IMG/VR virus record: IMGVR_UViG_3300037484_000235
Coordinates: 160,001 to 224,000 of that record
Reading direction: 5' to 3' (one strand)
From: a virus
Lineage: Duplodnaviria; Caudoviricetes
Length of the DNA stretch: 64,000 nt
Shown: piece after piece, positions 2,035 to 14,590 of the stretch
Position numbering within the stretch: position 1 is the first letter of the stretch
Layout: each line of letters opens with the position of its first letter
The notes under the pieces: model-generated
What the model saw: the letters and a program-made list of their open reading frames with translations, nothing else
Databases searched by the model: none
What the model was told of the DNA's origin: nothing
Translations under genes and position numbers: made by a program

Positions 2035-2913
2035 ATGACCACCACAGTCAACAACGCCGTCAAGCAGAAGATCATCAGCGACTACCTCAAGACAGCTTCG
2101 GGCCGTAACAAGCTCGCAGCGTCGATGACGCAGCCGCTCCGCACTCGCCGCGACTACATGAGCGTCGGTCGCAAGACCTTCCTCGTGGAGCAGCTCCCCG
2201 ATGGTGCGCTTCCGATCTACGACAAGGACCCGGACGTCACCGCGTTCGTGGTCGGCGAGGAAGGCGAGAACATCCTCGCCATCACCAAGCCACGCCGTGT
2301 GATCTTCCCGCTGTTCGAGATCGCATCGAACCCGGAAATCCCACTCACGCAGATCAAGGAGCGTCGCTTCGATCTGATCGAACGCGCCCAGGATCTTGCG
2401 CGTGCGCAGATTCAGGCAGCAGAAGACGAGCGTGTCTTCGCAGTGCTTGACGCAATCGCAGTCAACGGATTCGACTCGCTTCCCGGCGGGACGAACGCTG
2501 ACATCCCGGTCATCGCACCGATCACCGGCGCGGTACTCGCAGACGCCTTCTCGCTCATCGAGCGCCACGACCTTCGGGTTGCTCGCGTTTACATGAACGC
2601 GCGGGACTACGCGGATATCCGCAAGTTCGGTCGGGACATCCTGGACATCGAGTCCCAGGCCACCCTGCTCAAGACCGGACTTCAGGCCACCCTCTGGGGC
2701 GCCCAGGTCATCACGAGCCGTCTCGTCCCCGTCGGCACCGTGTACGTGTGCTGCGAGCCCGAGATGTTTGGACGCATTCCCGTACGTACGGAACTCACGG
2801 TCCTGTCTGCCGACGACCCGAAGGCCCGCACGATTGGATTTTCGGTCTTCGAAAATTTGGGCATCGGCGCATACAACCCACGTGGGTTGGTCCGACTCAC
2901 GATCACTCGCTGA
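2035..2913 (+). CDS. Major capsid protein (HK97 fold)
   Basis: 292 aa with segments typical of large-phage MCPs (PLFEIASNPEIPLTQIKERRFDLIERAQDLARAQIQAAEDERVF; GFSVFENLGIGAYNPRG). Highly biased codon usage, RBS GAGGA and a downstream terminator support the call. Confidence 0.85.
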   Translation: MTTTVNNAVKQKIISDYLKTASGRNKLAASMTQPLRTRRDYMSVGRKTFLVEQLPDGALPIYDKDPDVTAFVVGEEGENILAITKPRRVIFPLFEIASNPEIPLTQIKERRFDLIERAQDLARAQIQAAEDERVFAVLDAIAVNGFDSLPGGTNADIPVIAPITGAVLADAFSLIERHDLRVARVYMNARDYADIRKFGRDILDIESQATLLKTGLQATLWGAQVITSRLVPVGTVYVCCEPEMFGRIPVRTELTVLSADDPKARTIGFSVFENLGIGAYNPRGLVRLTITR

Positions 2914-2941
2914 TCGTAAACCCCTGTAAAATAGGGTGACT

Positions 2942-2981
2942 GAGAGGCTCGGTTCCGAGAGGGACCGGGCCTCTCGTCTTT
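2942..2981 (+). terminator. Terminator hairpin after the MCP
   Basis: GAGAGGCTCGGTTCC-GAGA-GGGACCGGGCCTCTC followed by GTCTTT. Confidence 0.7.
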
Positions 2982-3031
2982 AACTCGCTGGGATCGGCCC
3001 AGTCCAGAAATACTTTCCGATCCTTATAGCT

Positions 3032-5626
3032 TTGGCCTCGTCCTGTGTTATGGTACCGATAATCACCGACGGGGCATACTACTTGGAAACCTCTCCGAAG
3101 AACTCCCCTAACAAGGGGTGGGCAAAACAGAATGGGCTTGATAGTAATCTTCTCAGGACTCTCTATGAGGAGATGACAGACAAAGAGATTGCGATTCGCT
3201 ATGCAGTGAGTGACGCCTTGATTTCCTACTACCGTAGGAAATGGGGCATCCAAACAAAGACGACCCGACAGAGGGTTGATAAGTCTCGGGTAGGTCAACC
3301 GACTCTGGATGACCTGACACCTGTCACCCTAGCGGACCTTTATGCGCAGATGGGTGATCGACAGGTTGCCAAGCTCTACGGGGTCCAAAAGCCTGCCATC
3401 ACAAGACTCAGACAGAAGTGGGGTATCTCAGCGCTGTCTAAGGGGGATCGCTCCGCAAATCAGTCAACTGGATTCACTGAGGTCCAGAAAGAGGCATGCG
3501 TTGGTACCCTTCTTGGGGATGGGCATCTCCTTGAGCGTGGGGTTCTGAAAGTCACCCACTCACAGGCTCAACTTCCCTACTTGATGAGGCTTCATGCTTT
3601 TCTAGCCCCCCATGTTCTCCCGATCTTCTACGAGGAGAAAGACATGGTGGAGAGCGGGCAGGTCGCCTACGCTTTCGGGTTTCGGACAGTGCAACACCCG
3701 TGGCTTGCAACCCTACGTGGTCTTTTTTACCCAGAGGGTCGAAAGGTGTTTCCGGAGGCTGTCCTATCGGCTCTTTCCCCACGATCCCTAGCTTACTGGT
3801 ATTGGGACGACGGGCATCTTGACTCCGGATTGCCCTCATTTGCGCTTGGTAACATTACAGAGTCTGAGGCTAATAGGGTGGCTCAACTCGTTGGTGAACG
3901 ATTCTCTTTGGACACCTACGTGAAGCCGCAATCCACGGAGACATGCAAGCTCCTTGGCATTAGAGCCCGTACCGCTGACGTGTTATTCTACCTGATCCGA
4001 GAGTTTGCGACGGTCGATCTCCTTTACAAAATGCCACAGAAGCATTGGCCACCTGGGATGGTCCCTAAGGTGCTTCCTTTGACCAAGGAAGCTCACGCCC
4101 TACCCGCCCCCTTAGTAGAGAGGTGTAGCGGATGGGGGAGCCTCAGTGAGGACCAGCGTGCAACCTTGTTGACTGATCTGGAGCAACACTGGCATACGAT
4201 TGGATTTCCTCACCCAGAGCCAAGACCGGAAGAGATTGGTGTGATTCACGCACTCAATCACACCCAGGTCATCCAGGATGGTGTAGTCAAGAACAGACAG
4301 GTTGGGCAGGCAACGTGTCATGCTTTTGCACCACATATCTGGAAAGCACGGTCCTATGGCGCGTCGTCAAGCCCGGATGACATCTTCCAGGATCCAACGC
4401 TTCTACAACAGGCATTCAAGTTGTGCCTCAATGGAGGGGGGATACCTAACGGCGCACGACTCAGAGGGGTTCTCAGGCTCCTTAGGCGATCTGGCGTCTA
4501 CAACTTTCGCCCATCAGCAGCTAAGGCGCTCACTGACCGTTACTGTCGTGTTGGGGGGACTGTGTGGGATCCGTGCGCTGGTTACGGGGGCCGCCTTCTG
4601 GGTGTAGCGCTCTCATCCGCCCTTCCCCATTACATCGCGTGTGAGCCCCAGAGCGAGACCTACACCCGACTTCACCATCTCCGGGATTGGGTTGACTCCT
4701 ATGTTCCTGGGGTTGCTTCCAGGGTGTCACTTCACAATGTACCTGCTGAGGAATTCGACGTTCCAACAGGAGTTGATATGGTGCTTACCTCCCCTCCTTA
4801 TTGGAAGCGGGAAACATACGGGAATGAGCCAACTCAATCCGGAATTCGTTACCCTACTTATGCAGCATGGTTGGAAGGATTTTGGAGGGTGGTGCTCACA
4901 AAGTCTGTACAGGCCCTACGCCCTGGGGGGTGGTTGGTACTCAACGTAGACAACTTCAAGATCGGGGGACAAGAGTACGGTCTCGTGGGAGACACAACCT
5001 TGCTCGTAAGGGGGTTTGGTTTCGGGGAACCAGATGTGTTGCGGTACGCGATGCCAGCCCCTGGAGACTCAGATAACGCTGAGTATGTTCTATGTTGGCC
5101 AAAGGCAGGTGTTTCATCCCAGGCGGTTCCAGTTGAGCCGATCAATGTGTCCTCGTGTTCTGGGTGTGGCAAACCGACACCGTTCTCACAGCTTTTAGGC
5201 GGGGAATGTAGTCGGTGCCGAACATTGAAGGGCGTAACAGTCGTGTGTGAGGGATGCGGGAAGCCTTTTGTGTCTCTCCGGTCTGGGACACGATTTCATA
5301 ACGAAGCCTGTTATGCTAGATTCAAACGACGGAAGTATCGGGAGGCAAATCCAGCAAAGACTTCTCGCACGTTCACCTGTGTGACTTGCGAATCCACATG
5401 GGAGACTGATCTGCATGGGAATTTCCATACTTGTCCTACGTGCCGTGAAGCCGCTGAGGTAGCAGGTCGAACGAAGATTTGCGTCTATCGGCACTGTGGC
5501 AAGTCTTTCGTGGATACATCTCCGAAGAACGGGATGAAGTTCTGTGCTCCTGAGTGTGGTAGACGGGAAAAGATGTTCAGATGTGGGAAGGCTATGGACG
5601 AGTCTTACTTCCGAGTCCGGGCGTGA
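3032..5626 (+). CDS. Fusion protein: two HTH repeats + LAGLIDADG-type endonuclease + SAM-dependent DNA amino-methyltransferase + C-terminal Cys-rich zinc fingers
   Basis: HTH-like repeats (LYEEMTDKEIAIRYAVS..RRKWGI / LYAQMGDRQVAKLYGVQ..RQKWGI), LAGLIDADG helices GTLLGDG and YWYWDDG, MTase motif I DPCAGYGG, motif IV TSPPY, and several CxxC pairs after about 5150. The exact start codon is uncertain. Confidence 0.8.
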   Translation: MASSCVMVPIITDGAYYLETSPKNSPNKGWAKQNGLDSNLLRTLYEEMTDKEIAIRYAVSDALISYYRRKWGIQTKTTRQRVDKSRVGQPTLDDLTPVTLADLYAQMGDRQVAKLYGVQKPAITRLRQKWGISALSKGDRSANQSTGFTEVQKEACVGTLLGDGHLLERGVLKVTHSQAQLPYLMRLHAFLAPHVLPIFYEEKDMVESGQVAYAFGFRTVQHPWLATLRGLFYPEGRKVFPEAVLSALSPRSLAYWYWDDGHLDSGLPSFALGNITESEANRVAQLVGERFSLDTYVKPQSTETCKLLGIRARTADVLFYLIREFATVDLLYKMPQKHWPPGMVPKVLPLTKEAHALPAPLVERCSGWGSLSEDQRATLLTDLEQHWHTIGFPHPEPRPEEIGVIHALNHTQVIQDGVVKNRQVGQATCHAFAPHIWKARSYGASSSPDDIFQDPTLLQQAFKLCLNGGGIPNGARLRGVLRLLRRSGVYNFRPSAAKALTDRYCRVGGTVWDPCAGYGGRLLGVALSSALPHYIACEPQSETYTRLHHLRDWVDSYVPGVASRVSLHNVPAEEFDVPTGVDMVLTSPPYWKRETYGNEPTQSGIRYPTYAAWLEGFWRVVLTKSVQALRPGGWLVLNVDNFKIGGQEYGLVGDTTLLVRGFGFGEPDVLRYAMPAPGDSDNAEYVLCWPKAGVSSQAVPVEPINVSSCSGCGKPTPFSQLLGGECSRCRTLKGVTVVCEGCGKPFVSLRSGTRFHNEACYARFKRRKYREANPAKTSRTFTCVTCESTWETDLHGNFHTCPTCREAAEVAGRTKICVYRHCGKSFVDTSPKNGMKFCAPECGRREKMFRCGKAMDESYFRVRA

Positions 5627-6034
5627 ATGTCAGTTGAAGTGCGTAAGGGTGCTATGGCCACCAAACCAGAAACTCCAAATCAGTTTGATGCATGGGCGGC
5701 TCCCCGTTCCAAGTTCACTCCCTCCGTGGAGGAGGCAAAAAAGAACAGTGGGATTGAACAGGTCTCTAAGGGGTATGCCGACCTGATAGCCGCAGGAATC
5801 CCGATTGCCATGAGGATCTGTGAGGAGAGGGGGAGAGTGACCTCTGTTGAAGTGGAAGCGGAGATGTTGTCAGACTCTCGTTATGCATCGAGGATGGCTG
5901 AAATCCCGGTGGGGGAAACTACGCCCGAGAGACGTTGGCTGGGGCATATCTTCCAGAGAGGTGGTTGGAAGCGTTTTGGCTACGAACCAACTGGATCTCA
6001 TGGCCGCCCTGTGTCCATCTGGAAACGTGCCTGA
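5627..6034 (+). CDS. Hypothetical phage protein
   Basis: 135-aa ORF abutting the upstream stop; an alternative start lies at 5654 after AAGGG. Confidence 0.6.
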   Translation: MSVEVRKGAMATKPETPNQFDAWAAPRSKFTPSVEEAKKNSGIEQVSKGYADLIAAGIPIAMRICEERGRVTSVEVEAEMLSDSRYASRMAEIPVGETTPERRWLGHIFQRGGWKRFGYEPTGSHGRPVSIWKRA

Positions 6035-6069
6035 CTGGGTCGGTGGCGCCCCTATCATTCTCCTAACGT

Positions 6070-6255
6070 ATGCAAGATGAGGATGGGAAGCCGCCAGACC
6101 CACGATGGATTCGTGCAGTAGACATCGTCTCTTGTGTGATTGTCTGCGCCTTTGCCCTCGCCGGTCGTTACAAGATCGCAGATAGCATTGACGACTTCAT
6201 GCACCCAGTGCTCGTCAGGGCCCGGGCCCGTGCTCGTGCAAGGAGGACTACGTGA
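6070..6255 (+). CDS. Small hypothetical membrane protein
   Basis: 61 aa with a hydrophobic stretch (IVSCVIVCAFALAG). Its stop overlaps the next start (GTGA). Confidence 0.35.
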   Translation: MQDEDGKPPDPRWIRAVDIVSCVIVCAFALAGRYKIADSIDDFMHPVLVRARARARARRTT

Positions 6256-6431
6256 CCGTGATTACGCGTTCCCAAAAAGCTGCGGATGCTGCGGTGGTTG
6301 TGGTCGATGCTGCACGCCGCCTGATACACAACAGGCATAAGGAGGGGCTCCCACGCGCCACAGAGATTGCTTTGTATGATGCACTAGAGCAGGCGGTGTT
6401 GTTCTATGAGGAGTGCAGGTCGGTAACGTAG
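6252..6431 (+). CDS. Small hypothetical protein (59 aa, not in the supplied ORF track)
   Basis: GTG start preceded by a perfect AGGAGG; reads MTVITRSQKAADAAVVVVDAARRLIHNRHKEGLPRATEIALYDALEQAVLFYEECRSVT. Confidence 0.55.
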   Translation: MTVITRSQKAADAAVVVVDAARRLIHNRHKEGLPRATEIALYDALEQAVLFYEECRSVT

Positions 6432-6453
6432 AGCAACCCGTACAGGAGCCCTC

Positions 6454-7023
6454 ATGGATTTCATCAAGAGCTGGAAGTTCGCTGTGATCGTGTTCGTTGT
6501 CATCGCCTCATTTGCCATCGTGGGTGTGATTTACGGGGTGGCTACACACACCGAACCCGGCCTCATGGAAGATGCCCCTCAATGGCGTCCTACTGATTTT
6601 CCACTGGCCACCTGTCAGCGGGCCTATGTGTCTGGCGCCACAACAGGTATTGATGTCCAAAAGGCGATCCAGACAATCAACTCCCGTTTGGGATTTCAGG
6701 CTTTCGTTAGCTCGGACTCTTCGTGCCGGGTGGACATCACTCTGGGTGTGCCTGCGGAGATGGGGTGGATGGACCCGGGTGGTGACGCCCGATTCACCGA
6801 CAGCATGAACACCATGCGGTGCGAGGTTCGGACCTCAAACGTACAGGGTGAGCTTCTGGGCCTGGTTCTACAGCACGAGCTTGGCCATTGCTTGGGTCTG
6901 GCTCATGATGACTACGAACAGAGCATCATGCGTCGGGTGCAGAACCACACCGTCCGTGGGTTGCCCCCGTGGATTTCAGACTCGGACAAGAGCCTTCTCG
7001 TGGGTCTTTACGGTCCAAGGTGA
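6454..7023 (+). CDS. Membrane-anchored matrixin-like (metzincin, M10-like) zinc metalloprotease
   Basis: N-terminal transmembrane/signal segment, HELGHCLGLAH (HExxHxxGxxH) and a Met-turn (SIM); RBS AGGAG. Confidence 0.8.
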   Translation: MDFIKSWKFAVIVFVVIASFAIVGVIYGVATHTEPGLMEDAPQWRPTDFPLATCQRAYVSGATTGIDVQKAIQTINSRLGFQAFVSSDSSCRVDITLGVPAEMGWMDPGGDARFTDSMNTMRCEVRTSNVQGELLGLVLQHELGHCLGLAHDDYEQSIMRRVQNHTVRGLPPWISDSDKSLLVGLYGPR

Positions 7024-7178
7024 TGGGGTCGACTCAGAAACCCGCAATCGACACCAGCATGGCCATACCCACACATGAGGGGATCCGTATCTCAGTGCCT
7101 ATGGGGACCTTAATGCTGAGGTTTGACGTGCGTGAGTTGGTCCTACGCCTTACGATTCAACGGCTGAATCGGATGTGA
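7023..7178 (+). CDS. Small hypothetical protein
   Basis: TGATG overlap with the protease stop; 51 aa. Confidence 0.3.
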   Translation: MGSTQKPAIDTSMAIPTHEGIRISVPMGTLMLRFDVRELVLRLTIQRLNRM

Positions 7179-7180
7179 TC

Positions 7181-7516
7181 TCAGTCGTCGTCGTCGTGTC
7201 GTGACTGGACTCGGACCCTACGAGCGCGGATCCTGGCTGACTTTCGGGTGATGGCGCGGGCGACGGGGTCTGGGTACTCGGGGTTCAGTCGCACCTCTCG
7301 ATCAACGGTGGCGGTGATGTTGCGGTGAGCGCGGTCGCCATTGTCGATGAGGTCCATGGATTCACACCATTTCCAGGCGGCCCACTCGTTCGCTTGGAGT
7401 GGGGTGGTGTACTCATCGATCAATTCGGGTTCGTGGGACATGACGAAGGCTTCCCCGATAGCTTCGAGGATTTCTTCAAAGCGCTCGTCAGTGACAGTGG
7501 ATTCCGAGATTGTCAT
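7181..7516 (-). CDS. Hypothetical protein
   Basis: 111-aa ORF coupled to the upstream minus-strand gene by an ATGA-type overlap. Confidence 0.6.
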   Translation of the reverse strand: MTISESTVTDERFEEILEAIGEAFVMSHEPELIDEYTTPLQANEWAAWKWCESMDLIDNGDRAHRNITATVDREVRLNPEYPDPVARAITRKSARIRARRVRVQSRHDDDD

Positions 7517-7908
7517 GGCGTCTCCTCGTAGTTGTAGCGTAGTGCCCAGGCTTCATCTTCGTTCGATCCAACATCAGCATGGTGCTTGTCGAACGCATAG
7601 CGGTTCTCGTAGGCAGCAAGGATTTGTTCCTCCTTACGCTGCTGCTCTTCGCCCCAGTGCGTCCCGTAGAACTCGGATCGGAAGTCATCCCACGCCTTGT
7701 CTTCCTCGCGTCCACGAGCTGAGCGCAGGCGGTCGCCCTTCTCGCGCCGCCCCTTAGCGACGACTTTGAACGTATTCAGGGGGACGCGGGCGAAGTGCTC
7801 GCAGTCGCACACCCAGCAGTAGTCCACGGCCTTCCCCAGCTGCGTACAGCCGTTCGGGTTGTGGACGGTAGGAACGTTGGCGCCCCATCGAGTCGTTGCG
7901 TTAGTCAT
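7513..7908 (-). CDS. Hypothetical protein with Cys cluster
   Basis: Likely start at 7908 (MTNATTRWG...) with CWVCDC. The longer annotated frame runs antisense into the tmRNA and is unlikely. Confidence 0.55.
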   Translation of the reverse strand: MTNATTRWGANVPTVHNPNGCTQLGKAVDYCWVCDCEHFARVPLNTFKVVAKGRREKGDRLRSARGREEDKAWDDFRSEFYGTHWGEEQQRKEEQILAAYENRYAFDKHHADVGSNEDEAWALRYNYEETP

Positions 7909-8033
7909 GCCTGAGAGACGCCCGGCCATTTGGGTTCCTGACAGAGACGGGGAACTTTTTGATCGGTCCGGTGATTTAGTGGTTGCACTCCGTTCTGGGT
8001 GGGCGTAAGAGCCTGGGGATAGGAAGTACCAAC

Positions 8034-8418
8034 GGGCTCGAAAGGTTTCGACAGGGAGGTGAAGAGAGAGGGTGCGCGCCTTGGTCGGTCGAAGGGCCAA
8101 GTAAAAAATCGACCTACGACAGCTGCCAACGATAACAGCTACGCTCTCACGGCAATCGCCGCGTGAGCCGTTCGCGGAGAGAGTTTCTCAGGTAGATCTC
8201 TTCGCGAGCGTAAAAGGAATCTGAGAGAACCTCGGGCCAGACCATCGAGGCTAAACATGGCGGTGACGGATAGACTCTGGGAAACCAAGAGCCTACCCGG
8301 TGGAAGGGCGCCAGGGACCGCAAGCCTACCGTAAGTGGCTTGGAATCCTGGAGACGCGCGTGGTGCCTGATCTTTAGTAATCGCTCTGGACGTGGTTTCA
8401 ATACCACCGAGTCCACCA
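8034..8418 (+). ncRNA. ssrA: tmRNA (transfer-messenger RNA)
   Basis: The 5' GGGCTCGAAAGGTTTCGAC pairs with the 3' CGAGTCC-ACCA as an acceptor stem, including a G3:U wobble as in tRNA-Ala. T-arm is GTGGT-TTCAAT-ACCAC. The internal tag frame 8125-8166 reads ANDNSYALTAIAA*. Length is 385 nt and CCA is encoded. Confidence 0.93.
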
Positions 8419-8426
8419 GTGGGGTA

Positions 8427-8462
8427 GGGGTAGGGGGTCAGCGTACACTGACCCCCTACCCC
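8427..8462 (+). terminator. Perfect 15-bp hairpin 3' of the tmRNA (terminator or processing signal)
   Basis: GGGGTAGGGGGTCAG-CGTACA-CTGACCCCCTACCCC; no U-tract. Confidence 0.55.
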
Positions 8463-8490
8463 CAAGGAACCCTGCCCAAAGTCCACCACA

Positions 8491-8949
8491 TTGAACACCA
8501 CACCCTACTCGGAGAAGCTCCTCGTTCAGGCACTGGGCGTGGTCCTTTGCAGTGGGATTGTATTCAAACAGAACGCTCGTCCCAGGTTCCTCAAGAATCC
8601 GGCCACCGGGACGAATCTTGAGCTTGACGTGTACCTTCCAAAGCTGCGTCTGGCTTTTGAGGTGCAGGGTCCGCAGCACCGCAAGGATGCCCAGCAGGTG
8701 GCTCGGGATGCCCTCAAGGCGGGTCTGGCGGAGGCCCGTGGGGTCAAGGTCATCCCCTTGCGCCTCGACGAGCTACGGGCTGATGGTGTGTGGCGGTGCC
8801 TTCATGCGAGGGCCCGGGAGATCGGTGTCTCCCCGTGGAAGGTTGTGCAGCCGCTCGGGTTCATCCGTGAAGGGATGCAGCTTCAACACGAGGCTGCGAC
8901 CAAGTACACCGCTCACCTTCTTGAGAAGTACGGACCGTTAGAAGTCTGA
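8491..8949 (+). CDS. PD-(D/E)xK (Vsr/DUF559-like) endonuclease
   Basis: LELDVYLPKLRLAFEVQGPQH motif; the same motif family occurs in the C-terminus of ORF 57690-58976. Confidence 0.7.
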   Translation: MNTTPYSEKLLVQALGVVLCSGIVFKQNARPRFLKNPATGTNLELDVYLPKLRLAFEVQGPQHRKDAQQVARDALKAGLAEARGVKVIPLRLDELRADGVWRCLHARAREIGVSPWKVVQPLGFIREGMQLQHEAATKYTAHLLEKYGPLEV

Positions 8950-8964
8950 TAGTCCGCCAATGGC

Positions 8965-9582
8965 ATGGCGTCCCTCAGGTCCAAGGTGATTCGACTAGCA
9001 CACTCCCGGCCGGAGCTTCGCCCGGCTCTTCTTCCTCTGTTGAAGGCGGCTTCCGAAGAGGAGAACGAGAGTGAGGCGCAGGCCAGGGCTATTCTAGAGA
9101 AGAACCTGGAGCCCCTCAAGAGAGGCTTCTGGAAGCCCCCACACAATCTGGCCCTCAACTTTGCACTGATGGGCGCGAACCTGTGGACGTTCACCATCCT
9201 CCCGCTCTTCTGGAAGAAGCAGGGTTATCGGGCTGACCTCAACGGGATTGTGATCCAACCCCTCTGGCGGTCCGTGCAGAGTGGCACCACCCTCGGGTAT
9301 AGGAATACGTCGGGATTTGCTATCCTGACTCCTGATGTTGCCCAGAGCATCGTGAGTCTGATTGGACGGGCGGAGTCAATCCAGGACACAGTCCGGGAAG
9401 AGCTTCGGCTCATCGAGACTCACTTCGGGATTGAGATTCCAAGTCAGATCAAGACGTCCCTTGCATCTACCGACATGCTGAAGGTTGCAAAACGCCGTTG
9501 GCGTGTGGACACCCTCAAGCTCAAGAAGCGCCTCATCCCATTTGATGGCAGCAAGCCTAGAGACCTGGGCTCGTTCGATTGA
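8965..9582 (+). CDS. Leader-bearing putative head cargo protein 1
   Basis: Starts MASLRSKVIRLAHSRPELRPALLPLLKAAS; the rest is unrecognised. Confidence 0.7.
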   Translation: MASLRSKVIRLAHSRPELRPALLPLLKAASEEENESEAQARAILEKNLEPLKRGFWKPPHNLALNFALMGANLWTFTILPLFWKKQGYRADLNGIVIQPLWRSVQSGTTLGYRNTSGFAILTPDVAQSIVSLIGRAESIQDTVREELRLIETHFGIEIPSQIKTSLASTDMLKVAKRRWRVDTLKLKKRLIPFDGSKPRDLGSFD

Positions 9583-9613
9583 ACCAACCTCGCGTCGCAT
9601 AGGACCCTCAAAA

Positions 9614-9937
9614 ATGGCTACTCTCTCAAGCTCTGCTTCTCTTCGACTTGCTGATGATACGAGCAGGACAATGCTCTTGCCCATTTCCACTGACGCTGGT
9701 GCTGCTGCACTCGTTGTGTCGGTGCGTTTCGGTCCATTCGTTCCTGGAGATCCCATCATCGTCGTATCTGACGCGGCGTTTCACATGGTAGCTGGCACCG
9801 TGACGATTGATGCGACCGTCGCAAGTCCAAAATTCCTCGCAGGGCTCTATGCTTTTACGATGCCTGATGATTGCACCCACGTGGCGATGATCCAGTCTGT
9901 AGCTGGTGCTGCGGTTGGCCAAGCATACCGTGGCTGA
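9614..9937 (+). CDS. Small hypothetical beta-rich protein
   Basis: Likely start ATG 9614 after AGGA; 107 aa; directly precedes the SGNH gene. Confidence 0.5.
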   Translation: MATLSSSASLRLADDTSRTMLLPISTDAGAAALVVSVRFGPFVPGDPIIVVSDAAFHMVAGTVTIDATVASPKFLAGLYAFTMPDDCTHVAMIQSVAGAAVGQAYRG

Positions 9938-9949
9938 GCGAAGAGAACC

Positions 9950-11395
9950 ATGCCCTCTTTCATCGACACTGCCCTCCGCCGTTACGCGTCTGGTTTTTCC
10001 GCGCGTAGTTCCGGGAATGGGCGTCGGCCGGGGCGTGGCTCGCGCAGGGGCGGGGGCTGGGGAGTCAATCCTTCGCTGCTCGACGCCCTATTCGGCGACG
10101 GTAGTGGTCCGCGCGTGTTGCACGTCACTGGCGACAGCACGTCCAACGATCCGATCGACTGGGCGTACAAGCTCGGCGTGCTGCTGGCCGCTCACCGGCC
10201 TGACTACGCCCTTCACTACGCCTTGTGGAACGCCGCCTCGCAGCGAATGGGGTCAACGGCGCAACTACAGAACCCGTCTGGTGCCGCGCGAAGCAGCGCT
10301 CTAGGCAGCACGGCGGCAGCGCGATTCAATGCGACGATCAACACCACCGCACTCGTCGATCTCGATGTGCGAGTGAAGCTCGCGGCCACGGACTGGACCC
10401 CGGCCGCGATTGCTGCGGTGTGTGGTGCTGACGCAGCCGACCCAAATCGTTTGTTCTGGTTTCAGATCCTGACGAACGGCAAGCTACGACTCTCGTGGTT
10501 TCCTCTGGGCACCAACGCCTCTGCGATCAATGTCGACTCAACCATAGCGACTGGCGTCGCCGATGGCACTGCCAAAGTCATCCGCGCGACGCTCGACGTT
10601 GACAACGGCGCCGCCGGATACACCGTCACGTTCTACACGAGCGCGACCAACAACTCGTGGGTGCAGCTCGGCGATCCGGTCGTCGGCGGCGCCCCAACGA
10701 ATCTGCACGGAGTCGCAGCGAGTAATCTCACCGTGGGTGGACGAGGCACCACCAACGGCGTGCCCGGCGTGTACTACTGGGCCGAGGTGCGGGACTCCAT
10801 TGACAGCGTGGGGGTGACGGCGCTGTGGGACGCGAGCGACTATGCTGGCAGCGGGACCATTACGGGCGTCGCGGGCGAGACATGGACGCCAACGGGTAGT
10901 CCCGTCACGACAGGTGCCTTTGCACTGCGCGTGATCAACGCGTCGCAAGCTGGCCAGACGTCAGTTGGGTGGGCCACGTCGCCCGCTTTTGAGGGCGGAC
11001 ACCCCGTCGCACCGGCTGTCCATCTCGTGAATCTTGGACACAACGATGGCGCGGCGGTAGACATCGTGAACTATACAGCACTCATCGACGATCTCGTGAC
11101 GCGCTGGCCGTCCGCAACTCGTGTACTCGTGCGGCAAAATGATCAGCCTCCGACGGCCGCAAATCCCACGGAGCACGCGATTCGGCAAGAGTTGATTCGC
11201 TCCCTCGCGGTGTCACGGCGATACGAGCTGCTCGACGCTGATGCCTCGCTGCGATCATACACGGCGGGCGACTGGACGACCGATCTCATGGAGGATTGGG
11301 CGGGCGGCAATGTGCACATGAATGCTGCGGGCGGGACTTGGATCGCAGCCACCTTTGGCGCGCGTTTTGTGGCACCTCGGGTGTTTGTACCATGA
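9950..11395 (+). CDS. SGNH/GDSL hydrolase with an inserted ConA/LamG-like beta domain
   Basis: Block I VTGDSTS, block II NASQAG, block III NLGHND and block V NVH. A beta-sandwich-like segment of about 200 aa lies between blocks I and II. Confidence 0.7.
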   Translation: MPSFIDTALRRYASGFSARSSGNGRRPGRGSRRGGGWGVNPSLLDALFGDGSGPRVLHVTGDSTSNDPIDWAYKLGVLLAAHRPDYALHYALWNAASQRMGSTAQLQNPSGAARSSALGSTAAARFNATINTTALVDLDVRVKLAATDWTPAAIAAVCGADAADPNRLFWFQILTNGKLRLSWFPLGTNASAINVDSTIATGVADGTAKVIRATLDVDNGAAGYTVTFYTSATNNSWVQLGDPVVGGAPTNLHGVAASNLTVGGRGTTNGVPGVYYWAEVRDSIDSVGVTALWDASDYAGSGTITGVAGETWTPTGSPVTTGAFALRVINASQAGQTSVGWATSPAFEGGHPVAPAVHLVNLGHNDGAAVDIVNYTALIDDLVTRWPSATRVLVRQNDQPPTAANPTEHAIRQELIRSLAVSRRYELLDADASLRSYTAGDWTTDLMEDWAGGNVHMNAAGGTWIAATFGARFVAPRVFVP

Positions 11396-11443
11396 CCCCA
11401 CACACGACGATCAACGCCTGACAATTTCAAGGAAACTAGGACC

Positions 11444-12526
11444 ATGACCACCACCAAGATTGCAATGCCTCGCGAGCGCCACTTCTCCTACAACGACCCC
11501 AAGGCTCCAGGGTCTCCGTGGGGTTCAACTCAGTCGCTTTACGATCATCCCACACTGCGGGGCGTCCGTATCGTGAGCACAGCAAGTCATGGTGGTATGG
11601 GTATCGCGGGTGGTATTGCCCGCAAGGTGCTCTCTCCGGCTGCGTACAAGATCGGGGAGAAGTACGGTGGGTACGTTTGGTTTGAAGAGGACGTTGGGAT
11701 CAGCATCCCCTACTACGAGCACCCTGAGTGGTATCCGCTCCTGGTGGGGAAGCCACTTACGGATGCTGTGAAGATGGACCTGGAGCGTAGTATCCGCCAA
11801 TCGTACCCTCGGTACTTCAAGATGCGGGAAGAGGGCTACAAGCTTCCTGAAGCACTTCGGGTCGGTGACACCCTCCGTGTCATTCTGCCAATCCATCTCT
11901 CTCGTGGACCTGGGCTTGCGGTTGGGGATTTGCTTTTGGTCACGAAGCTGACTGCCACGTATTTCTACGCATCGTCGCCCACAAGGACGAGCTTGCGGAT
12001 CAAGCTCCCTGTTGGGTACTACCTGGGTGCAACTGGGTGGGGCACCACGGAAGACAAGATCTACGTAGAAAAGGTGCCAAGCCCAGCTCGGGTCGCTGCC
12101 CTTAAGCTATCTGGAAGGAAGGAGAAGCCGCCAGAGACGCATGCTGTGCGCATGGAAAAGATCCTCAAGGATTTCGACAAATCAGTAGCCAAGCGCTGGC
12201 CTGGTGTAAAGCATGAGAAGGCGTCCTTTGGAAAGATTGAGGATGACACACCGATCATGCCTTGGGTAGTGGCGCAGTCTGTTATCGAGGAGGCCCAAAA
12301 GGAAACGGGGGCCTCGTTGAATGTCCGTAATCTAGTGCGGAGTCTCTCAACTCGGGCACAGACCACCTACGAGCACAATGAGGATTTTCGTAAGAAGGTC
12401 CGTGGTCGTGGGGACTCTGGTCGTGATACTCTCTATGCTTTTATGCGACACTGGCTAGCAGCCTACCTTAAGAAAGAGCAACCCGACGTCTTTCGAAAGC
12501 TTCCAGGTGACTGGTTTTCAAGGTAG
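11444..12526 (+). CDS. Multidomain protein with an N-terminal DUF7007-like domain
   Basis: SPWGSTQ...VSTASHGG...WFEED pattern recalled for DUF7007; a second domain follows SPARVAALKL. Confidence 0.55.
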   Translation: MTTTKIAMPRERHFSYNDPKAPGSPWGSTQSLYDHPTLRGVRIVSTASHGGMGIAGGIARKVLSPAAYKIGEKYGGYVWFEEDVGISIPYYEHPEWYPLLVGKPLTDAVKMDLERSIRQSYPRYFKMREEGYKLPEALRVGDTLRVILPIHLSRGPGLAVGDLLLVTKLTATYFYASSPTRTSLRIKLPVGYYLGATGWGTTEDKIYVEKVPSPARVAALKLSGRKEKPPETHAVRMEKILKDFDKSVAKRWPGVKHEKASFGKIEDDTPIMPWVVAQSVIEEAQKETGASLNVRNLVRSLSTRAQTTYEHNEDFRKKVRGRGDSGRDTLYAFMRHWLAAYLKKEQPDVFRKLPGDWFSR

Positions 12527-12580
12527 GTAAGGCAACCTTGGTAGAGTATCCCCGGAGACACAACCTCCGGAGGCTCTGCA

Positions 12581-13750
12581 ATGGCTGCTGATACCGCTGA
12601 GATCAAATTCGTTCCTGGGACGTTCCAGTCATTTCGAACTACCACCAAGATTCACCTTGGGAAGATCATCAAAGACCTCAAGTTAGGTGATGTCGTCCAA
12701 TTTGATGGACAGACACTCAAGGTCGAAGGGGTGGATTACGCCTACCCAGAGTTCCGAGCTGCTTTCAAAGCTGGTGTCGGCTGGGCTGTTCCAGAAGTGG
12801 ACAACATCTCAAGCTACACGGCCAAATCCACGGATGCAAAGGTGCGTCCCGCTCTGGATTCCAAGAAGAATCAAGGTAAACACGTTCCCATCACGGTCTC
12901 CGATGATGAGAAGGATGTTGGCCCGGCTCGTCGTGTGGTCAAGGCGGATGATCCAGACGAGGCAAAGGTGGTCGGCTCCTTCAGTAAGAAGATCCAGAAC
13001 ATGGATGACGTAGAGAAGCCTGTTGGTCCGTCGACCAAGAGAGCAATGGAAGTGAAGTCTGACTCAGTCGGCAACGAGGATGCTGTCACCGTTGGGAAGA
13101 TTCGTACTCCCGCAGTGATGAAGACAGTGGTCTCTGATGGGGCGCAAGCAGCTCGCGAGGCTGCAAGGCTTGATGAGGTCCCACCGCCCAGAGCTATTCT
13201 CAACTCCCCAAAGGGTGAGATTCACGCGGCCGAGTCCGAGGATGTGGGGTCGATCATTGACTCCCTCAATCCGGAAGACCACGCACGTATGGTGCGGGAT
13301 CAGCGCAAGGCACAGCCCCCCAAGACGGAAGCGCAAGACCACGGGTCTGTGGATTGGGCAAGTCAGGTGGCAGAGGCCAGACAGATTCTGGCAGAAGATG
13401 CACGCAGGTGGGAGGCAAAGGTGGCAGAGGCCAGACAGATTCTGGCAGAAGATGCACGCAGGCCGGCAGTAACAACAGCCTCTCCTGTTTCTGTAAGGAA
13501 GGAAGCCCCCAAGCACCCACGAACCCGCCCGGTTACAGTCGAGGAAGTCATTATGCGGGGAACTGACATCGACCTTGGTGACGGGGTCATGTGGGACAAG
13601 AATCTTCATTGGAAGACGCGGGCCAAGATTGCGGCCGAGCAGTACAGGGATAACCCGAAGATCTTGGCGGCTATTCGCCAAGCGGAGTCCCCAGCGGTGA
13701 ACGCCCTGATCTCCGAACGCATCACGGCCATCACTGGCAAAGCGGCCTAA
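12581..13750 (+). CDS. Hypothetical protein, charged/low-complexity centre
   Basis: 389-aa ORF with RBS GGAGG; contains an internal tandem duplication. Confidence 0.7.
   Translation: MAADTAEIKFVPGTFQSFRTTTKIHLGKIIKDLKLGDVVQFDGQTLKVEGVDYAYPEFRAAFKAGVGWAVPEVDNISSYTAKSTDAKVRPALDSKKNQGKHVPITVSDDEKDVGPARRVVKADDPDEAKVVGSFSKKIQNMDDVEKPVGPSTKRAMEVKSDSVGNEDAVTVGKIRTPAVMKTVVSDGAQAAREAARLDEVPPPRAILNSPKGEIHAAESEDVGSIIDSLNPEDHARMVRDQRKAQPPKTEAQDHGSVDWASQVAEARQILAEDARRWEAKVAEARQILAEDARRPAVTTASPVSVRKEAPKHPRTRPVTVEEVIMRGTDIDLGDGVMWDKNLHWKTRAKIAAEQYRDNPKILAAIRQAESPAVNALISERITAITGKAA
13365..13462 (+). repeat. 44-nt perfect direct repeat, 54-nt period (VAEARQILAEDARR x2)
   Basis: AGGTGGCAGAGGCCAGACAGATTCTGGCAGAAGATGCACGCAGG at 13365 and 13419. 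Confidence 0.9.
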
Positions 13751-13816
13751 TAGGGCTCGTTCGGTAACTCTCGGATAATGTTGGCAGGTGAGGAGCACCT
13801 TGCTTCTCCAGCCAAC

Positions 13817-14590
13817 ATGAAACGAACTAAGACAGCTTCGAGTCAGGTCGCATGGTCCCTTCTTGCGGAGGGTGTGACCCAGGCTCGTGTAGACATCCAT
13901 CGTTTGAGGCTCTTGATCGATAGAGCACAAGCCATGGTCGAGAAGTCCGAGGAACGAGAGCACATTTGGCAGGTGGCAGGTGACGTGATTCAGGGGATCC
14001 CTGATACGTTGTCCTCTGCGGAACGTGCTCTTGATCGAACCTCCTACGCCCTATCCGTTATGGGAGAGGATTTCCTACGTGGCAGATTATCATTTGATGA
14101 TCGTGCCAGAGTCGATGGCGCCGTGAAAACTTCCCCGTTCTCAGGAAATCGTGGGAAGGACTCAATGGCGTCCAGGGTAGCCCGTCGGTATCTTCTGGTT
14201 CAGGGTGTTGGTGGGAGGGGCTCAATGGAGTCCCGGGTGTCTCGCCGATACCTTTTGGCTCAGGGTGTTGCCCCAAGCGCAGAGGCCTACTTCTTCCACA
14301 ATCCGGAAATGAGGGAGGTCAGGCAACTCAGTGAGTCCAAAGCTATCTCTAATGACACCGGTGTGGCCGTCAATACGGTAAAGGGGTTGGAGTCTCCGGA
14401 TAGAACTGTATCCAAGGCACGTAGTGAGTCAAACAAGGCTCCGCCTACTCCGGATCAGATCAAGAGGATGCCAGGGGGTGCTGAGTTCTCCACTCTCAAT
14501 CGGTTCCTTGTGGAGACAGGACAGCCTGGGGTTCACGGTGTACCCGAAGGTCATTGGGAAGTCCCTAAACACCCTAAGTTGAAGCGGTGA
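13817..14590 (+). CDS. Hypothetical virion-associated protein with duplicated SRVxRRYL motif
   Basis: Likely start MKRTKTASS (alternative start 13778). Contains SMASRVARRYLLVQGV and SMESRVSRRYLLAQGV at a 60-nt period. Confidence 0.65.
   Translation: MKRTKTASSQVAWSLLAEGVTQARVDIHRLRLLIDRAQAMVEKSEEREHIWQVAGDVIQGIPDTLSSAERALDRTSYALSVMGEDFLRGRLSFDDRARVDGAVKTSPFSGNRGKDSMASRVARRYLLVQGVGGRGSMESRVSRRYLLAQGVAPSAEAYFFHNPEMREVRQLSESKAISNDTGVAVNTVKGLESPDRTVSKARSESNKAPPTPDQIKRMPGGAEFSTLNRFLVETGQPGVHGVPEGHWEVPKHPKLKR

Follow-up and report, generated by a model that had tools for sequence, protein, structure and literature searches.

An I-SceI-like LAGLIDADG nuclease joined to a predicted DNA methyltransferase in the post-capsid slot of phage genomes

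Selfish elements that cut DNA come in two classic kinds, homing endonucleases and restriction-modification systems, which are mostly discussed as separate subjects. In the usual view, homing enzymes leave their carrier uncut because the target is disrupted or changed in sequence, and the homing endonucleases of T-even phages owe their self-immunity to differences in target sequence. Restriction and modification can reside in a single chain, as in the Type IIG/IIL enzymes MmeI and Eco57I, and we know of no restriction enzyme with a LAGLIDADG nuclease. The free-standing homing endonucleases of T-even phages (Seg, Mob) illustrate intronless homing and marker exclusion (PMC2988022), and the published theme closest to the present one is that of ShiLan and other homing elements lodged inside phage DNA methylase genes (PMC11855218, PMC9957025). 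In this work we analyze a gene that combines a LAGLIDADG nuclease and an amino-methyltransferase in one polypeptide, a feature of single-chain restriction-modification enzymes, directly downstream of the major capsid protein gene of a huge, uncultured tailed phage. The gene lies in a stretch of 64,000 nucleotides (positions 160,001 to 224,000 of IMG/VR record IMGVR_UViG_3300037484_000235; Duplodnaviria, Caudoviricetes), hereafter the window, which derives from a viral contig of 252 kb with an estimated completeness of 57%.

We consider it probable that this is a mobile, free-standing homing-endonuclease gene whose product combines an active nuclease with an active DNA methyltransferase, both activities being predicted. 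This reading draws on the motifs of the nuclease and the methyltransferase, on the conservation of the fused architecture and on the polymorphism of the slot that it occupies behind the capsid gene. What appears to be new, no paper on it having been found, is the single-chain LAGLIDADG-methyltransferase architecture, its fixed post-capsid position and the existence of a parallel version built on a PD-(D/E)xK nuclease, the component families themselves being known. Our literature search, incomplete in coverage and thus giving absence of evidence only, returned no description of a LAGLIDADG-methyltransferase fusion or of a LAGLIDADG restriction enzyme.

Architecture and conservation of the fusion gene

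An uninterrupted open frame of 864 codons runs on the + strand of the window from a TTG at 3032 to position 5626, and residue numbers are counted in this frame throughout, so that ATG 3050 is Met7. This methionine is invariant across 36 homologues and the database gene call for the protein is 858 amino acids (aa) long, which makes ATG 3050 the likelier translation start, rather than TTG 3032. The gene and its parts are as follows.

3050..5626, + strand: fusion gene, 858 aa, from the open reading frame (ORF) scan; in order, helix-turn-helix (HTH)-like repeats, LAGLIDADG nuclease, methyltransferase and zinc sites
3143..3436, + strand: two HTH-like repeats (residues 38-76 and 97-135), from reading of the sequence and a family hidden Markov model (HMM)
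3467..4051, + strand: I-SceI-like monomeric double-motif LAGLIDADG domain (residues 146-340), from PF03161 and the I-SceI profile match
4052..4471, + strand: helical N-domain of the methyltransferase module (residues 341-480), from the AlphaFold model; covered by stand-alone relatives of ~340 aa
4472..5131, + strand: Rossmann-fold amino-methyltransferase core (residues 481-700), from motifs, model and profile matches
5156..5557, + strand: four predicted zinc sites in two ribbon-plus-CGNR units, from the zf-CGNR match and cysteine conservation

The first-pass annotation of this DNA had described a single ORF with HTH repeats, a LAGLIDADG endonuclease, a DNA amino-methyltransferase and zinc fingers, both LAGLIDADG helices being in frame with methyltransferase motifs I and IV and several CxxC pairs. 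We find the frame open and the domains present, and every one of these elements can be read in the translation: the LAGLIDADG motifs VGTLLGDGH (157-165) and AYWYWDDGH (254-262), the methyltransferase motifs DPCAGYGGR (513-521) and TSPPYW (586-591), and cysteine pairs at 709/712, 726/729, 739/742, 783/786, 801/804 and 817/822. Its remark that no intein splice motifs are evident agrees with a Pfam search at E up to 1, which detects no Hint or intein family in the protein. An intein identity was accordingly dropped, there being no Hint domain and no extein ahead of the nuclease module, which sits at the N-terminus of the ORF. A search of NCBIfam returned nothing useful.

The claim of N-terminal HTH repeats stands as far as the repeats are concerned, residues 38-76 and 97-135 being clearly homologous units of ~39 aa each; their HTH nature is suggested only by Pfam HTH_23 in five homologues and by a weak PHROG match to 'DNA binding protein'. 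According to the family HMM, the same HTH-like module stands ahead of free-standing LAGLIDADG genes at the post-capsid slot of other phages. The nuclease domain that follows is matched by Pfam PF03161 (LAGLIDADG_2) over residues 154-311 (E 5.8e-22; 78.9 bits against a cut-off of 25, and 82.6 bits in the genome search), and a profile of the 36 homologues aligns to residues 25-227 of the 235 of I-SceI with E 8.8e-26. The chain bears two LAGLIDADG motifs, each with a terminal acidic residue (LLGD163G and WDD260G). D163, D260 and K333, which we take to be the counterparts of the catalytic D44, D145 and K223 (the lysine of YKLP) of I-SceI, are invariant in the 36 homologues, and position 238 is K or R. 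Inspection of the catalytic acidic residues, which had been proposed as a check, thus finds both intact in the window, and across 132 distinct LAGLIDADG-methyltransferase fusions the first aspartate is retained in 126/128 and the second in 130/131 (~98%). Judged by its sequence, the nuclease is a complete I-SceI-like LAGLIDADG domain with intact catalytic residues.

The AlphaFold model of residues 341-700 (predicted local distance difference test, pLDDT, 94.9; predicted template modelling score, pTM, 0.92) shows a Rossmann methyltransferase core and, ahead of it, a helical N-domain that may serve in DNA recognition. Within the core the central residues of motif I (DPCxGxGGR) and motif IV (TSPPY) are invariant in the 36 homologues, and NFRP is found at residues 491-494. 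Structural comparison assigns the model to the class I methyltransferase fold (Z 15-17.7; root-mean-square deviation 2.2-3.4 Å over 175-190 aligned residues), with TrmN, Trm11, Trm14, TrmI, RsmC, PrmC and METTL5 as best matches in a flat list of amino-group methyltransferases; TrmN, Trm11, Trm14, TrmI, RsmC and PrmC share the order of motif I before motif IV. Foldseek searches with the model returned generic Rossmann methyltransferases only.

The nearest sequences of solved structure are DNA methyltransferases, namely TTHA0409 (2zie; E 1e-9 to 9e-15) and the cytosine-N4 enzyme 8s9m, and the alignments to both are circularly permuted. Motif I (513) precedes motif IV (586), so that the beta-class order (IV then I) is not found in the fusion methyltransferase, and the permuted alignments to DNA methyltransferases lead us to regard it as a permuted relative of the N6_N4 DNA methylases and not as a strict beta-class enzyme. 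PF01555 (N6_N4_Mtase) scores 16.1 bits on the window protein, below its gathering score of 26.7, and exceeds the threshold in about half of the full-length homologues and in all seven proteins of the PD-(D/E)xK variant introduced below. Among Atlas clusters, the nearest consist of viral proteins to which automatic annotation gives the name cytosine-N4 DNA methyltransferase, and these names, together with the SPPY motif, offer N4-cytosine as a lead only to the base that may be methylated. At E up to 1e-3 the methyltransferase family comprises 3744 representatives, among them many stand-alone enzymes of ~340 aa that are common in phages. The alternative reading of the first-pass annotation, in which the LAGLIDADG fold acts as the specificity domain of the methylase, finds no support in these data and is unlikely: the stand-alone methylases possess their own helical N-domain, and the catalytic aspartate pair of the fusions is kept. 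As an obligatory specificity domain the LAGLIDADG module was dropped from consideration, since stand-alone methylases exist. A second methyltransferase, of the beta class (PF01555), is encoded outside the window in the source contig (G000:C1:132493-133539); its PF01555 match is split into two parts ~650 bases apart within one 702-codon open frame.

In the C-terminal tail the predicted zinc ligands are C709/C712/C726/C729 and C739/C742/H756/C760 for sites 1 and 2, and C783/C786/C801/C804 and C817/C822/C838/C842 for sites 3 and 4. Pfam matches zf-CGNR to residues 813-848 with 24.2 bits against a cut-off of 24, the cysteines of the tail are kept in 30-36 of the 36 homologues, and the same zinc module occurs N-terminally in the PD-(D/E)xK variant.

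A search for homologues with the same fusion, as had been suggested, recovers ~70 protein clusters from JGI, ENA, Logan and NCBI that are 41-100% identical to the protein over at least 94% of its length, on independently assembled contigs of up to 528 kb, and in IMG/VR 329 loci encode a relative. Substitution analysis against the nearest relative, L086 (83% DNA identity; L-numbers denote the related viral loci compared and P-numbers database proteins without genomic context), puts the ratio of nonsynonymous to synonymous substitution rates (dN/dS) at 0.10 in the HTH repeats and 0.065 in the LAGLIDADG domain; the two parts of the methyltransferase have values of 0.078 and 0.041, and the zinc tail has 0.064. 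Over the 36 homologues the mean pairwise identity is 0.51 in the nuclease domain and 0.53 in the methyltransferase core, which are thus equally conserved. From these sequence comparisons, all domains of the fusion are under strong purifying selection, with their catalytic motifs intact.

An assembly chimera or an unnoticed frameshift separating the domains, either of which would have made the fusion spurious, is a negligible prospect for which we found no support: the frame contains no stops, the architecture is unbroken in the independent clusters and in many IMG/VR contigs, and purifying selection spans the domain borders. The earlier reservation that the fusion might be already common and characterised holds in its first half, since it is common in metagenomes, and fails in its second, no characterisation having been found in the literature. 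Comparison of the first 12 kb of the window with annotated phages by megablast produced no match, and the sole full-length match to the fusion in that phage collection is the unannotated LR745208, of 485 kb.

The capsid flank and its occupants

The position of the fusion is defined by its flanks, which contain the following features.

2035..2913, + strand: major capsid protein gene, 292 aa (phrog_2522, major head protein, E 4e-50); conserved left flank
2942..2977, + strand: post-capsid hairpin with a 15-bp stem and, behind it, a short U-tract (RNA fold -36.3 kcal/mol, z -5.15)
5627..6034, + strand: 135-aa ORF of the right flank, beginning at the base after the fusion stop; homology to the nearest relatives resumes here

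The capsid protein is 80-99% identical in ~570 viral contigs. Its dN/dS against L086 is 0.02, and the neighbouring 226-aa gene (1343-2023) is only 40-85% identical in the same contigs. The fusion ORF begins 136 nt past the capsid stop codon as an ORF of its own, outside any intron or intein. It had been placed right after the terminator of the capsid gene, and a strong hairpin does follow that gene; its U-tract, however, is short and a consensus terminator scan did not call it. The 135-aa ORF, 59-60% identical at the protein level in L083-L086, has no match in Pfam or PHROG, and among the neighbouring ORFs the capsid protein alone was identified by PHROGs.

In every one of the loci recovered with the fusion as query the gene lies directly downstream of the capsid gene, and this position holds even where identity of the fusion has fallen to 25-30% and the capsid proteins are 80-93% identical. 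A converse search with the capsid alone returned 573 loci, of which the best 80 were examined and the 62 with at least 1.2 kb of downstream sequence were counted, redundant populations included. In 29 of them the slot contains neither nuclease nor methyltransferase; 24 carry a free-standing HTH-LAGLIDADG gene, six the LAGLIDADG-methyltransferase fusion, three a PD-(D/E)xK-methyltransferase fusion, and none a methyltransferase alone. The free-standing HTH-LAGLIDADG genes are ~300-350 aa long and at times occur two or three in tandem; such rows of two or three different genes directly behind the capsid gene are seen at L105:7003-10123 and L147:6956-8883. Pfam detected no domains in eight alternative occupants of the slot.

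In alignments with loci whose slot is filled differently (a nuclease only in L083-L085 and L087, the other fusion in L088, nothing in L091), DNA homology stops at the capsid stop codon, at window positions 2913-2917. It is regained over 5750-6023 with L086 and over 5780-6023 with L083-L085. Flanking genes correlate with one another in their divergence (Spearman rho 0.76), whereas the cassette correlates with its flanks at 0.31-0.34 only; in the pair L023/L028 the upstream gene is 90% and the capsid 98% identical and the cassette 44%. The slot is polymorphic, and the cassette has been exchanged between lineages. The suggestion that the gene could be a selfish element gains from these results, and the combination of presence/absence polymorphism, a homology break at the stop codon and discordance between cassette and flanks leads us to view the slot as a homing hotspot. 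The slot forms part of a hypervariable cargo island, which in the window extends from the capsid gene to a conserved gene pair (12596-13729 and 13811-14584), that is, over 2913-12596; the island measures ~9.7 kb here and ~0.2 kb in L116, and most of its ORFs are without a database match.

The second type of fusion, found in the post-capsid slot of L088, L092 and L106, consists of zinc fingers, a region of ~330 aa and a methyltransferase of the same family. Examples are L088:2155-3132 (+ strand), the loci L092 and L106, and the proteins P0110, P0160 and P0219-P0231, for which no published description was found. The middle region is an internal duplication with the pattern GxxGE...P(F/Y)D...VxVK, and its model (pLDDT 84.7) has structural matches in NhoI (Z 10.8), I-Ssp6803I (Z 10.8), Eco15I (Z 9.6) and Hjc; Foldseek also returned an engineered single-chain PvuII. 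The model suggests a tandem PD-(D/E)xK nuclease, a natural single-chain pseudo-dimer. Given these PD-(D/E)xK matches, two unrelated single-chain pseudo-dimeric nucleases would each be joined to the same methyltransferase family at this slot.

Further combinations extend the pattern. In P0220 / P0082 (1560 aa) a single ORF encodes the HTH-LAGLIDADG-methyltransferase-zinc finger series followed by a PD-(D/E)xK-methyltransferase unit, and elsewhere the same methyltransferase family is fused to LAGLIDADG_3/LAGLIDADG_1 and ParB_N (P0133, P0149, P0105, P0128), P0133 and P0149 being among the LAGLIDADG_3 fusions and P0128 a ParB_N fusion. Forms of 1229 aa (L001:5179-8868, which is LR745208, together with L095, L096 and L017) have an additional HTH-LAGLIDADG unit fused at their upstream end. 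The LR745208 type has lost the catalytic residues in the upstream LAGLIDADG copy (GNG, DRG) and has an intact copy next to the methyltransferase; L017 and P0023 have two intact copies. The arrangement gives the impression of repeated invasions at the capsid stop codon, each stacked on the last.

Trees of both enzymes were built with FastTree, with Shimodaira-Hasegawa-like supports, and some rows labelled as free-standing in them may reflect gene calls that were cut short. In the methyltransferase tree the clade of the window holds 76 rows, 75 of them fused (support 100), and the PD-(D/E)xK-linked enzymes form a separate clade of 19; in the nuclease tree the clade of the window is fused in 77/77, with the free-standing genes placed elsewhere. 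The label 'LAGLIDADG-fused' changes at least nine times in the methyltransferase tree and at least three times in the nuclease tree.

Competing readings of the fusion

If the probable reading given at the outset is correct, a nuclease of the I-SceI type would introduce a rare double-strand break into cassette-free genomes of related phages, at the highly conserved 3' end of the capsid gene or close to it, and repair by recombination off a cassette-bearing genome would copy the cassette in behind the capsid stop codon by intronless homing. The fused methyltransferase would travel along with the nuclease and methylate DNA. In the version that we prefer, the nuclease target of the carrier, or its whole genome, would be modified by the methyltransferase, and the element could therefore be directed against a sequence that is essential and hard to mutate while its carrier survives; the PD-(D/E)xK-methyltransferase fusion at the same slot would then be a convergent solution to the same problem. 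It is plausible that the methylase protects the nuclease target in the genome of its carrier, and we give this clearly less than even odds. The same tentative standing applies to its full form, a one-polypeptide homing element that cuts the rival and marks itself, with methylation falling inside the long nuclease target at the end of the capsid gene.

The main rival to such protection is that the methylase is uncoupled cargo, an orphan anti-restriction enzyme riding on a homing gene to which it was fused by loss of a stop codon, in which case the nuclease would confer mobility only and methylation would be unrelated to its target. The abundance of stand-alone relatives of ~340 aa in phages, the repeated switches between fused and unfused states in both trees and the location of the slot in a hypervariable cargo island are all in keeping with this explanation. 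Against it we count, as indirect evidence for cutting combined with protection, that the methyltransferase was never found in the slot without a fused nuclease (0/9 in the capsid-selected sample), that two unrelated nuclease folds are joined to it there, and that the fusion is stable over a clade diverged to ~40% identity, in which the nuclease is as constrained as the methylase; on balance we rate uncoupled cargo as the less likely account and the strongest of the rivals. Domestication of the LAGLIDADG domain into a non-cutting, long-site binding module that steers methylation together with the HTH repeats and zinc fingers, or into a regulator, has precedents in WhiA and the maturases, where LAGLIDADG folds have been co-opted for binding. 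The three kinds of DNA-binding modules in the protein and the tolerance of a dead extra copy in the 1229-aa forms would fit such a role. The catalytic aspartate pair and the equivalent of I-SceI K223 are nevertheless invariant, the pair persisting in ~98% of the fusions, the methyltransferase family works without a nuclease module, and presence/absence polymorphism with discordant flanks is typical of active homing, so that domestication appears improbable. An RNA methyltransferase of the tRNA/rRNA m2G/m6A type, to which the leading structural matches (TrmN, Trm11, Trm14, TrmI, RsmC and METTL5, Z 15-17.7) might point, is more improbable still: the flat list of matches reflects a shared amino-methyltransferase fold, sequence profiles find the DNA methyltransferases 2zie and 8s9m first, PF01555 is over threshold in many homologues, the fusion partners (LAGLIDADG, PD-(D/E)xK, ParB_N) all target DNA, and the nearest Atlas clusters bear automatic names of cytosine-N4 DNA methyltransferases.

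Several observations weigh against a mobile nuclease with a protective methylase. The cleavage site, the methylation motif and the methylated base are not inferable from the present data, and fusion, nuclease-only and empty loci do not differ visibly over the final 75 nt of the capsid gene. The fusion-bearing loci L044, L059 and L017 have been invaded again by other LAGLIDADG genes, and hence the methylase is not a general barrier to rival nucleases. The counts of slot contents are not independent events, because the sample holds redundant populations, and fusions could come about passively if a resident gene has nuclease genes inserted ahead of it time and again. Since the best structural matches are tRNA/rRNA amino-methyltransferases (TrmN, Trm11), a DNA substrate is not proven, and the PF01555 score of the window protein is itself sub-threshold.

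The family described here is large and conserved, and it places an I-SceI-type nuclease and a predicted DNA methyltransferase together at a homing hotspot beside a capsid gene. Both fusion families put forward a testable hypothesis, the epigenetic self-immunity of a homing element, as a weapon in competition between phages. If true, this would be the first restriction-modification-like unit on a LAGLIDADG nuclease, its carrier being immune epigenetically and not by mutation. The family may also serve as a source of natural long-site nucleases with an activity possibly switched by methylation, and the analysis marks the capsid-gene flank of a clade of huge phages as a hypervariable cargo island.

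Comparison with known systems

I-SceI resembles the nuclease of the fusion in having both motifs in a single-chain pseudo-dimer, and the match between the two is near full-length. The gene for I-SceI lies in a mitochondrial group I intron, and the enzyme has no domains beyond the nuclease; the fusion, known from sequence only, is free-standing in a phage, with HTH repeats ahead of the nuclease and a methyltransferase and zinc fingers behind it. In its genomic behaviour the cassette is closer to the Seg and Mob enzymes of T-even phages, which are likewise present or absent between conserved genes in close relatives, discordant in phylogeny with their flanks and neighbours of an essential gene. 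Those enzymes, however, are of the GIY-YIG or HNH type and carry no methyltransferase, whereas the window nuclease is a LAGLIDADG enzyme, and its fused methylase offers a possible epigenetic route to immunity that the T-even enzymes do not have.

With the Type IIG/IIL enzymes the fusion shares an N-terminal nuclease, an amino-methyltransferase with motif I before motif IV and further DNA-binding parts, and the sibling variant at the slot even uses PD-(D/E)xK nuclease domains. It differs from them in that the nuclease of the window is of the LAGLIDADG type and not of a restriction-enzyme fold (PD-(D/E)xK, HNH, GIY-YIG, PLD, half-pipe), and in that it sits in a mobile phage cassette and not in a cellular defence locus. 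LAGLIDADG enzymes read long sites unaided, and a recognition domain shared by the two activities is for this reason not expected. The fusions of ParB-like domains with N6_N4 methylases in phages and plasmids join the same methyltransferase family, in P0128 to ParB_N, with a DNA-targeting N-terminal partner; that partner has a different fold, and evidence of homing is lacking there. Elements of the ShiLan type likewise unite a homing nuclease and a phage DNA methylase in one reading frame, but in them the methylase gene itself is the target and is invaded by an HNH element or an intein, whereas in the fusion the nuclease is the N-terminal module and the site invaded is the flank of the capsid gene.

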